Assembly: GCF_965641715.1 (NCBI RefSeq)
Contig: NZ_OZ282453.1
Strand: one strand, 5' to 3'
DNA: 64,000 bases
Source: Escherichia coli
Lineage (GTDB): Bacteria > Pseudomonadota > Gammaproteobacteria > Enterobacterales > Enterobacteriaceae
Shown here: piece after piece, positions 49,501-52,500 of the stretch
How the letters are laid out: each line of letters starts with the position of its first letter
Numbering within the stretch: position 1 is the stretch's first letter
Program-made: the position numbers

Positions 49501-52500
49501 AGGGATAACGCTGATCATCCGTGCGGTCATCGCCTGATGCGACGCTGACGCGTCTTATCATGCCTACAAAATATGCCCGAATCGTAGGCCAGATAAGGCG
49601 CTTGCGCCGCATCCGGCATATAGCCGAGTAGAGGCAAAATTACTCTTCCCGGCCTTTACCCATACTTTTTTGGTCTTCATCCGGATAGTGTTTTTTTAGA
49701 TATTCCAGGACGTTTTTATTGACCTTATGTTGGGTATACACCCACCCTTTCCAGTAATCAGGCTGGTCCAGGTAAACTTCTGGCGGAATGGTGAAATCAG
49801 AAAGCGTTAACCATTCGGCTAACAGATCGGGGTTTCGTTTCTGTATCAACTGCAACAGCATAATCAGCGACATGGCAGAGGCAGGAGCCGTACTATCGCC
49901 GCTTAAATACTTCCACACTGTCGACCGGTTCGAACGAAAAAGGATCGGTAGCAATGCCCGGTCCAGATTCATTTCATTAAAAATCTTCTCAAATTCATTC
50001 ATTTAAATTTTCCTGCCTAGCGTAAACCTCTTAAAAATTGAGATTTATCAAAGAAACGCATTTTAGCACACATCAGGAACCGCTTCACGTTTAGTCCAGA
50101 AACAGAATTTATTTCGCTTATCAAAACAAGTCTTTACTCTTTTTTACGCTAAAATAGCACAAAATGATTTTCAAAATTATTTACTTAAGAAACCAATTCG
50201 GTTTCTTATAGACAGTGTTTACGCTTACACAAGACAAAAACGCGCTTTACATCACACAAATGGCGGCGTAGATTTCGATTAAATTGCAACGCAAATTAAC
50301 TCCAATAGAAATATTATTGGTTTCTATTAGAAACCAAAATAAACTTAATTTGATCGAGAAAAAATAAATGAAATCTGTAAAGTTGTCTTTACTGGCAGTC
50401 GTTGTTGCTACCATTGTGAGCCCATCTGCTTTTGCAGATGATACGGTTGAAGCGGCAGCGACAGAACTGACAGCGATTCACCCAGGTATGTCTCATGATG
50501 AAATCGATCAAAAAATCAATCGCTTCATGATTCGGACAGGTAATACAGAAGCCGCGCAAGATTACCTGTTTTCTCATGGATATATGGACCCACAGACAGG
50601 CGATAATATTTACCCTGCCAGTACAGCCGTACAGACTGACAGCAACGTCACCGACCAAAACCAGGCTGATCGCGACGCGGCGCAAGATACCGCAATTCAG
50701 AACGCACACAATATCGCAAGCATTGCGGCGGCAAATGCAGATGACGCCAAAAAAGCGCTTACCACTGCGCAATCTGCAATTGATGCGAACAAGGGAGCTA
50801 TTGCTGATACTCAGAAAGATGTCGCAGATGTTAAAGCAAGCGCCGCTCATGCCAACACAAACGCCAATACCGCCCTGATGAATGGCCTGAAACTCTCCGG
50901 TGCCGTGAGCGACAACAAAAACCAGATTGAAAAAAACAGCTCCTCTATTGCTGAACAGCAGGAACAGATGGCGTTAAGTGAGCAGAACCAAATACATCGC
51001 GATGCCGCACAGGACTCGTCAATTCAGGATGCCCAGCACTCTGCTAACTGGGCTTCGCTTAAAGCCGATGACGCGCACCATGCCATTATGGTGGCGCAAA
51101 CGGATATCGACGCCAATAAGTCGGCCATTTCCGACACACAAAAAGATGTTGCCGCTGTCCGCACCGATGTGAGTGCAATGAAAGATGATGTCGCAGATGT
51201 TAAAGCAAGTGCCGATCATGCCAACGCGAATGCTAATACCGCGCTGATGAATGGCCAGAAACTTTCCGGTGTCGTCAGCGACAACAAAAACCAGATTGAA
51301 AAAAACAGTACGGCGATTACCGAACAGCAGGAACAAATCACTGCCACGCAAAAAACCGTTGCCGCCACGGGTGATGTAAAGACCGCTGCTCGTTATCAGA
51401 GCATGATTAACGCTCTTCAGACAGCCACTGCTGATGCGCAACAATCACAGTCTGAAGCCCAACAAACGCAGATTACAGAGCAACAGAAGCAGATCGCAGC
51501 CACAGAAAAAACGGTCGCTGCAATTGGCGATCCCCAGTCAACTGCGCATTATCAAAAGATGATTAATGCCAAACTGACGGCGCAAAATGAAGCCAATGAA
51601 CGTTCAACCGCTGATCAGGAGCAGAGAATTAATGAACTGGCTTCCAATGTCGCGACGCAAGAGCAAATCGATAGCGTGCAATACGGTGAACAAATTCGAA
51701 ACCTTGCGCAAGACTCGGCCCAGGCACATGAGCGAATCGAAAGTCTGACACAAGATTCTGCCCAAACGCACCAGCAGTTAACAAACACGCAAAAACGTGT
51801 TGCAGATAACAGCCAGCAAATCAATTCGCTCAATAACAACTTCAGTTCGTTGAAACACGAAGTGGAAGATAACCGTAAAGAGGCTAATGCGGGTATTGCG
51901 TCAGCCGTCGCTATTGCTTCACAGCCTCAAGTTAAGACAGGTGATTTTATGATGGTGTCTGCCGGGGCGGGTACATTCAACAATGAATCTGCGGTATCTG
52001 TCGGTGCTTCGTTTAATGCTGGAATTCATACGGTAATTAAAGCGGGAGTCTCTGCGGATACACAATCTGATTTCGGCGCGGGTGTCGGCGTGGGGTATTC
52101 GTTCTAATTTTAATAGCAATTTCTTATTATACTCTAAATAATTCGAGTTGCAGCAACTTGAAGTATGACGGGTATAGCAATATTCCGCAGTTTATTTAAG
52201 GTTAACAATGATGAATAGCTCCATTAAATCGTTTTCCCTGCTGGCGGTTATATTACTGGCTGGCTGTAGCTCACCCGCTTCCCGCATCGCAGATTGCCAG
52301 GCGCAGGGCGTCAGCCATGACACCTGTTATCTCGCAGAACAGCAGCGCCAGACGGCTATTTTAAGTACTTCCGAAGCGCAGGCATTTAAAAATGCAGAAG
52401 CCGCACAACATGCCCAGGCGGCAAAGAAAGCCATTTATAAAGGATTTGGCATGACCTTTAGAATGAGCAGTAAAAACTTTGCTTATCTCAATGATTCATT

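Follow-up and report, generated by a model that had tools for sequence, protein, structure and literature searches.

The DNA analysed here is a window of 64,000 nucleotides (nt) from Escherichia coli (NCBI RefSeq assembly GCF_965641715.1, contig NZ_OZ282453.1), which carries at 50368-52107, on the plus strand, a gene for a 579-residue YadA-like protein predicted to be a trimeric autotransporter (TAA). Primer mapping identifies this open reading frame (ORF) as an allele of z0639 from O-island 29 (OI-29), and the subject of this report is the repeats in its stalk region and the length variants of the gene that are associated with them. The gene occupies the island between ybbJ (49079-49537) and cueR (52834-53241), which corresponds to OI-29 in O157:H7; three more genes lie in this interval, namely a minus-strand ORF of 120 amino acids (aa), a lipoprotein of 140 aa and a further ORF of 67 aa. 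Annotated E. coli genomes show the same gene arrangement between ybbJ and cueR, and the orthologues carry the RefSeq name 'YadA-like family protein'. The z0639 locus was detected in 1383 of 5426 complete E. coli genomes, O157:H7, O55:H7 and O145:H28 among them. About a quarter of the complete genomes thus possess this locus, with products of between 338 and 962 aa.

Inspection of the translation suggested a Sec signal peptide (50368-50436; MKSVKLSLLAVVVATIVSPSAFA, with the predicted cleavage site before DD), in which a basic N-terminus precedes a hydrophobic core, with AFA as the cleavage motif. The following N-terminal passenger region (50437-50658) is conserved across alleles. In an AlphaFold2 monomer model it is predicted to consist of a small helical domain (aa 27-69) and a linker, with helices at residues 27-31, 43-57 and 61-69 and a predicted local distance difference test (pLDDT) score of about 70. 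The N-terminal 70 or so residues gave no Pfam match that would place the helical domain in a family. The same model predicts the stalk as three long helices comprising residues 96-334 (uninterrupted, pLDDT 70-90), 337-384 and 389-517, and the hydrophobic or asparagine core positions follow a heptad-like I..N...I spacing, for example in IDANKGAI and IEKNSSSI. The model drew on 15 alleles and left the anchor unfolded, and trimer packing is outside its reach. At the C-terminus (aa 520-579; 51925-52104), the Pfam family PF03895, YadA_anchor, was matched with an E-value of 1.2e-10 and 41.8 bits against a cutoff of 22.7, and a phmmer search against the Protein Data Bank (PDB) sequences matched this region to the anchors in the structures of AtaA (9vnj) and Hia (2gr7, 3emo). 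A Pfam search at E ≤ 0.1 gave the anchor only and no adhesive head domain such as the YadA head, Hep_Hag or Trp-ring. Taken together, the anchor match, the signal peptide, the predicted helix and the heptad spacing point to a TAA with a long coiled-coil stalk. The gene product is accordingly predicted to be 'headless', with a signal peptide, a small N-terminal domain, the stalk and a YadA-type anchor. An initial annotation, made from the sequence without database searches, had labelled the protein as an adhesin with a stalk, which is consistent with the anchor match and the predicted continuous helix. In O157:H7, deletion of OI-29 left adherence to HeLa or Caco-2 cells unchanged (PMC5826968).

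Self-alignment of the protein resolved two consecutive modules in the stalk. Module 1 comprises 109 aa (aa 98-206; 50659-50985) and lies within the predicted helix 96-334, and module 2 comprises 123 aa (aa 207-329; 50986-51354), equal to a unit of 369 nt that recurs in tandem in a sister clade of alleles. Their alignment, which takes in both modules from end to end, has a BLOSUM62 score of 346, and its offset shifts from 109 to 123 aa because module 2 has 14 extra residues, or two heptads, immediately before the common DVADVKASA. At the DNA level, a direct-repeat search, in agreement with local DNA alignment, found two copies of 152 nt (50818-50969 and 51187-51338) that are 88% identical, differ at 18 of 152 positions and are spaced 369 nt, or 123 aa, from start to start. 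Each copy contains two blocks that are exactly conserved in the other, one of 23 nt (50818-50840 and 51187-51209) and one of 32 nt (50908-50939 and 51277-51308). Without gaps, the highest repeat score within the gene was 95, at an offset of 369, compared with 11.4±1.3 and a maximum of 17 in 100 codon shuffles. The duplication proposed in the initial annotation is therefore real, although its dimensions had to be revised: the modules had been put at about 115 residues each, and the DNA repeat at about 125 bp, nearly identical, with a spacing of about 350 bp.

The likeness of the modules in DNA is confined to their 3' part, 152 of 369 nt, whereas the 5' parts are alike as protein only. In the 3' part, identity is 83% over 54 codons, with a synonymous divergence (dS) of 0.60 and a nonsynonymous divergence (dN) of 0.11. 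The 5' parts are 60% identical in nucleotides and their synonymous sites are saturated (proportion of synonymous differences, pS, 0.89). Since dS in the 152-nt part contrasts with saturation elsewhere, the shared DNA is not due to protein constraint alone. Tandem Repeats Finder, applied to the window, did not report a module array in the adhesin gene because the two copies are too diverged.

Two further repeats are present in the stalk. A shorter duplicated unit with the motif TVAA.GD…YQ.MINA, also part of the initial annotation, was recovered as two 52-aa units (aa 321-372 and 373-424; 51328-51639) that share 25 of 51 residues (49%; score 117). The similarity is restricted to the protein, as the DNA of the two units is only 56% identical and saturated at synonymous sites; at this degree of sequence divergence they would now be too different to serve as a substrate for homologous recombination. 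A third repeat, absent from the initial annotation, is a tandem duplication of 14 aa (aa 447-460 and 461-474; 51706-51789) that contains imperfect 14-nt repeats, CAAGAYTCKGCCCA, at 51709 and 51751, and sister alleles show a homologous period of 42 nt by Tandem Repeats Finder. The same program found no homopolymer or short simple sequence repeat (SSR) tract in the gene that could shift the frame or the promoter spacing, and all indels observed among the alleles are multiples of 3 nt and in frame. On/off phase variation by an SSR was therefore rejected.

An exhaustive, profile-free search with the 123-aa module 2 against 1.84 billion representatives matched only 25 clusters, two of them below 1e-30. 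With so few close matches, the module is evidently lineage-specific. The remote matches, phage fibres and STAND NTPases among them, were coiled-coil proteins of a generic kind and offered no functional lead.

Comparison of the gene across strains showed that its length is not invariant, with window-type alleles of 1740, 1311 and 1269 nt. Four complete E. coli genomes carry the 1740-nt allele, 99.5-99.8% identical to the window gene, 27 complete genomes, mostly O145:H28, carry the 1311-nt allele at 97% identity, and a single complete genome, AP027877, has the 1269-nt allele. Strains with the 1740-nt allele include ET350, TB06052 and TUM13936. Both shorter alleles lack exactly 369 nt, corresponding to 50818-51186 of the window or an equivalent interval. 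Protein and DNA alignments agree that the O145-type and AP027877 alleles carry the sequence of copy 1 before the gap and the variants of copy 2 after it, and the junction falls inside GATGTCGCAGATGTTAAAGCAAG, the 23-nt block that the two repeat copies share without a difference. Two further alleles, P0009 (456 aa) and P0051 (422 aa), have likewise lost 369 nt, with the switch from one copy to the other in the 32-nt block (50908/51277). P0009 is otherwise identical to P0002, a 579-aa allele, with no mismatches. The natural deletion junctions thus lie in the longest exact blocks of the repeat. P0009 and P0051 are known only from short-read or metagenome assemblies, P0009 solely from Logan contigs (k=31), and because an exact repeat of 32 nt can mislead a k=31 assembler, this second class of junctions is considered probable rather than certain.

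Alleles that are at least 97% identical are also separated by four more in-frame deletions, each flanked in the window DNA by a direct repeat of 5-14 nt. P0006, an allele seen as protein only, lacks 147 nt (49 aa) between copies of the 10-nt repeat CTATTGCTGA at 50798 and 50945 (50798-50954 with both copies). The O145-type, AP027877, P0004 and P0051 alleles have lost 60 nt (20 aa) between 5-nt repeats, GCCAC, at 51364 and 51424 (51364-51428 with both copies). In P0003, 69 nt (23 aa) are missing between imperfect 11-nt repeats, GAGC[AG]AATCGA, at 51661 and 51730 (51661-51740 with both copies), and this protein has no other difference from that of the window. Finally, AP027877 and P0051 lack 42 nt (14 aa) between the imperfect repeats at 51709 and 51751 described above. 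The deletions of 20 and 23 aa are not multiples of a heptad.

In the AlphaFold2 model, the breaks of the stalk helix at residues 335-336 and 385-388 coincide with TGD and IGDP motifs. The TVAA(T/I)GD motifs (51367-51375 and 51523-51534; aa 334-336 and 386-389) coincide with the sole breaks of the predicted helix and may represent discrete connector elements of the coiled coil. One of them sits within the 20 residues that several alleles have lost. As this deletion takes out the predicted break at TGD, it may excise such a connector.

The sister clade, which is about 75% identical in DNA, contains the homologous 369-nt module as a clean tandem array. At a period of 369, Tandem Repeats Finder counted 2.9 copies in the allele L010 (98%) and 4.9 copies in L009 (90%), and across the full 369 nt the units of sister alleles share 90-98% identity. 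The two-copy allele L015, from the complete genome CP030768, differs from the three-copy L010 by one gap of 369 nt and a single mismatch in 1785 nt. One-copy alleles of 1416 nt occur in RefSeq assemblies of complete-genome level. By motif count, 120 homologues of 383-962 aa possess one, two, three, four or five modules, and the 338-aa alleles of O157:H7 and of strain 1428 have no 109-123-aa module, which gives a range of zero to five modules and 338-962 aa across all alleles. At least three allele clades, mutually 75-79% identical, exist at the locus. The 5' half of module 2, including its 14 extra residues, is similar to the sister clade's single module, and that of module 1 is far more diverged. 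From this resemblance, the two-module form would most simply be ancestral and the O145 form a deletion, a reading that rests on parsimony and is not proof.

In RefSeq, several intact ORFs at this locus are truncated at internal start codons, from 594 to 349 or 339 aa and from 471 to 431 aa (L015:1501-3285, L003:2506-4290, L004:2476-4260, L005:2671-4086 and L016:1501-2916). None of them contains an internal stop, and the calls of 349 and 339 aa begin within the second module. The repeats affect typing, pan-genome clustering and annotation of the z0639 gene. In E. coli F8111-1SC3 (L008:1366-3720), the adhesin gene is interrupted by the insertion of an IS4-like ISVsa5 transposase and is annotated as two pseudogene fragments.

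The significant repeat, the allele series, its differences of one period and the position of the junctions very probably reflect a stalk built on two copies of a 369-nt module, whose direct repeats recombine and give rise to an in-frame series of lengths. This supports the suggestion in the initial annotation that recombination between the repeats could expand or contract the stalk in frame. The two copies in the window would stem from an old duplication, after which the 5' halves drifted until only the protein-level likeness was left. The direct repeats would serve as substrates for unequal homologous recombination or replication slippage between the copies, and an exchange at homologous positions would remove or add exactly one period of 369 nt. 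The product would be a hybrid module in which the frame and the register of the coiled coil are preserved and only the length of the stalk is altered, because the exchange takes place at homologous positions and the 14-aa difference between the modules equals two heptads. In E. coli, Shen and Huang in 1986 are said to have put the minimal length for efficient RecA-dependent recombination at about 23-27 bp, and the exact blocks of 23 and 32 nt would be close to this figure. Other parts of the stalk contain repeats of 5-14 nt, which may yield the further in-frame deletions and would fit RecA-independent slippage. The outcome would be a series of stalk lengths at the level of the population. Both the enzymology of the exchange, RecA-dependent or by slippage, and a selective value of stalk length are what we infer; by analogy with other TAAs, a longer or shorter stalk could change the reach beyond the O-antigen or capsule, or the antigenic properties of the protein. 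Stalk length is a natural variable with possible effects on adhesion, autoaggregation and immune recognition.

Several points weigh against a recombining two-module stalk. The evidence is a comparison between strains throughout, and no variation within a strain was observed. The two-module and one-module alleles of the window type differ by about 3% outside the deletion, so the O145 deletion is not recent and its direction is taken from parsimony. The rate of recombination at the window repeat is probably low, since its copies are only 88% identical. The second class of junctions could be an assembly chimaera, given the k=31 Logan contigs, and the counts of four and five copies derive from draft or metagenome assemblies in which 369-nt arrays of 90-98% identity can be miscounted. 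In its general form, the last concern would make the window duplication or the shorter alleles themselves artefacts, as repetitive sequence is well known to produce collapsed or chimaeric assemblies and P0009 has its junction in a 32-nt exact repeat. However, four independent complete genomes have the 1740-nt form and 27 have the 1311-nt form, and copies that differ at 18 of 152 positions and have 5' halves of 60% identity make an assembly collapse implausible. For the main alleles an artefact was therefore rejected, its probability being close to negligible, but the reservation stands where P0009, P0051 and the alleles with four or five copies are concerned.

It might also be argued that the repeats are mere relics of an ancient internal duplication, kept alike by the constraints of a coiled coil and with no present role in generating length variants. 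The 5' halves and the 52-aa units (60% and 56% identical in nucleotides) would fit such a history, being alike as protein only and saturated at synonymous sites, as would the failure of Tandem Repeats Finder to detect an array in the window. On the other hand, the 152-nt part, with a dS of 0.60, contains the exact 23-nt and 32-nt blocks, natural alleles lack exactly one period with junctions in these blocks, and sister alleles exist that are one unit and one single nucleotide polymorphism apart, so that a pure relic is improbable. Horizontal replacement by pre-existing alleles, rather than intragenic recombination, could in turn account for length differences between strains. The locus is an accessory island of variable content with at least three allele clades of 75-79% identity, and the 5' half of module 2 is nearer to the sister clade than to module 1, which hints at past exchange between alleles. 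Yet allelic replacement spreads variants between strains and does not create them, and the near-identical pairs L015/L010, P0009/P0002 (no mismatches) and P0003/window (no mismatches) need an intragenic event; as the source of the length differences, replacement is thus very unlikely, even more so than the relic.

Variation of stalk length driven by repeats is textbook for TAAs, and z0639 is a new instance of it; no paper describing repeat polymorphism of z0639 was found in the literature. Saa, the autoagglutinating adhesin of Shiga toxin-producing E. coli, is plasmid-borne and has short repeats of about 37 aa near the 3' end of its gene, whereas the window gene is chromosomal, in the ybbJ-cueR island, with a 123-aa unit in the middle of the stalk. 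According to what PMC4060028 relates of Paton 2001 and Lucchesi 2006, the size of the saa gene varies with the number of direct repeat units, so that Saa resembles the window protein as an E. coli TAA with a strain-variable repeat number. The BadA and Vomp proteins of Bartonella vary in stalk length between isolates, and domain duplications, acquisitions and deletions in them have been ascribed to recombination between DNA repeats (PMC8859334). BadA is likewise a TAA with a repetitive stalk of isolate-dependent length, but it exceeds 3000 aa and has neck/stalk repeats, a head domain and neighbouring pseudogene 'toolboxes'. The window gene, in contrast, has a purely helical 123-aa unit in a protein of 338-962 aa, and neither a Pfam head domain nor pseudogene copies were seen. 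In Cha of the Haemophilus cryptic genospecies, adhesive activity is reported to vary with the number of tandem peptide repeats (Sheets and St Geme 2011, cited in PMC9704523). Cha is similar in being a TAA with a variable number of tandem repeats, and for Cha the functional effect was measured. The streptococcal M protein, Alpha C and Periscope proteins follow the same general principle of repeat-dependent length. Periscope proteins are defined as single-chain arrays of independently folding domains, with TAAs explicitly excluded (PMC9704523); the window protein, predicted to be a trimeric coiled coil, does not belong to this class.

The sole functional paper on z0639 treats its product as a transcription factor. 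Yang et al. 2018 described z0639 as GmrA, a cytoplasmic DNA-binding protein and transcriptional activator that binds the fliA promoter, in a paper that includes EMSA and ChIP data (PMC5826968). The published gmrA deletion primers were mapped on the O157:H7 locus, and their arms exactly flank the 338-aa coding sequence with the YadA anchor (L007:2722-3738). GmrA of O157:H7 is thus the same gene at the same locus as the window gene, in an allele without the 109-123-aa modules; anchor and stalk of the two are 79% identical in DNA. The 338-aa protein is predicted to have a signal peptide and an outer-membrane anchor. In a search of the O157 protein for a DNA-binding domain, YadA_anchor was the only Pfam family above threshold and TMF_DNA_bd had an E-value of 1.1. 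The best NCBIfam match was SMC_prok_B, an SMC-type coiled coil, below threshold with 22 bits against a cutoff of 567. The published role is hard to reconcile with the topology predicted from the sequence, which points to an outer-membrane protein, and the assignment as a transcription factor deserves re-examination. Tentatively, and with less likelihood than its contrary, GmrA might be a surface TAA in which recombination sets zero to five modules and thereby tunes the projection of the N-terminal domain relative to the O-antigen or capsule of the host strain; in that case, the reported effect on flagellar genes would be an indirect one, exerted for instance by way of envelope signalling.

Downstream of the adhesin gene in every allele are the 140-aa lipoprotein (52208-52630; z0638; lipobox LLAGC) and the overlapping 67-aa hydrophobic ORF (52627-52830). 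Neither had a family match, and a PDB sequence search with the lipoprotein gave matches at chance level only. They might be helpers in the biogenesis of the adhesin. The idea of the lipoprotein as a helper similar to SadB of Salmonella was dropped, as its PDB matches gave it no support. Upstream and divergent from the adhesin gene, the 120-aa ORF z0640 (49640-50002, minus strand) had a weak Pfam match, below threshold, to the MqsA antitoxin family (E=0.088), and a PDB sequence search with it yielded chance-level matches only. A scan for promoters and terminators gave background level only.

In some islands, an extra hypothetical gene of 1224 nt lies between the 67-aa ORF and cueR (O145, L001:5126-6349; strain L26, L003:5090-6313); neither the window nor O157:H7 has it. 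On the other side, cueR is adjoined by a HlyD-family adaptor of type I secretion (53238-54413, minus strand), followed in related genomes by the permease/ATPase of the type I secretion system (T1SS). Strain 1428 is without this HlyD/T1SS cluster and has a residual pseudogene fragment after cueR, with ybaT next to it.

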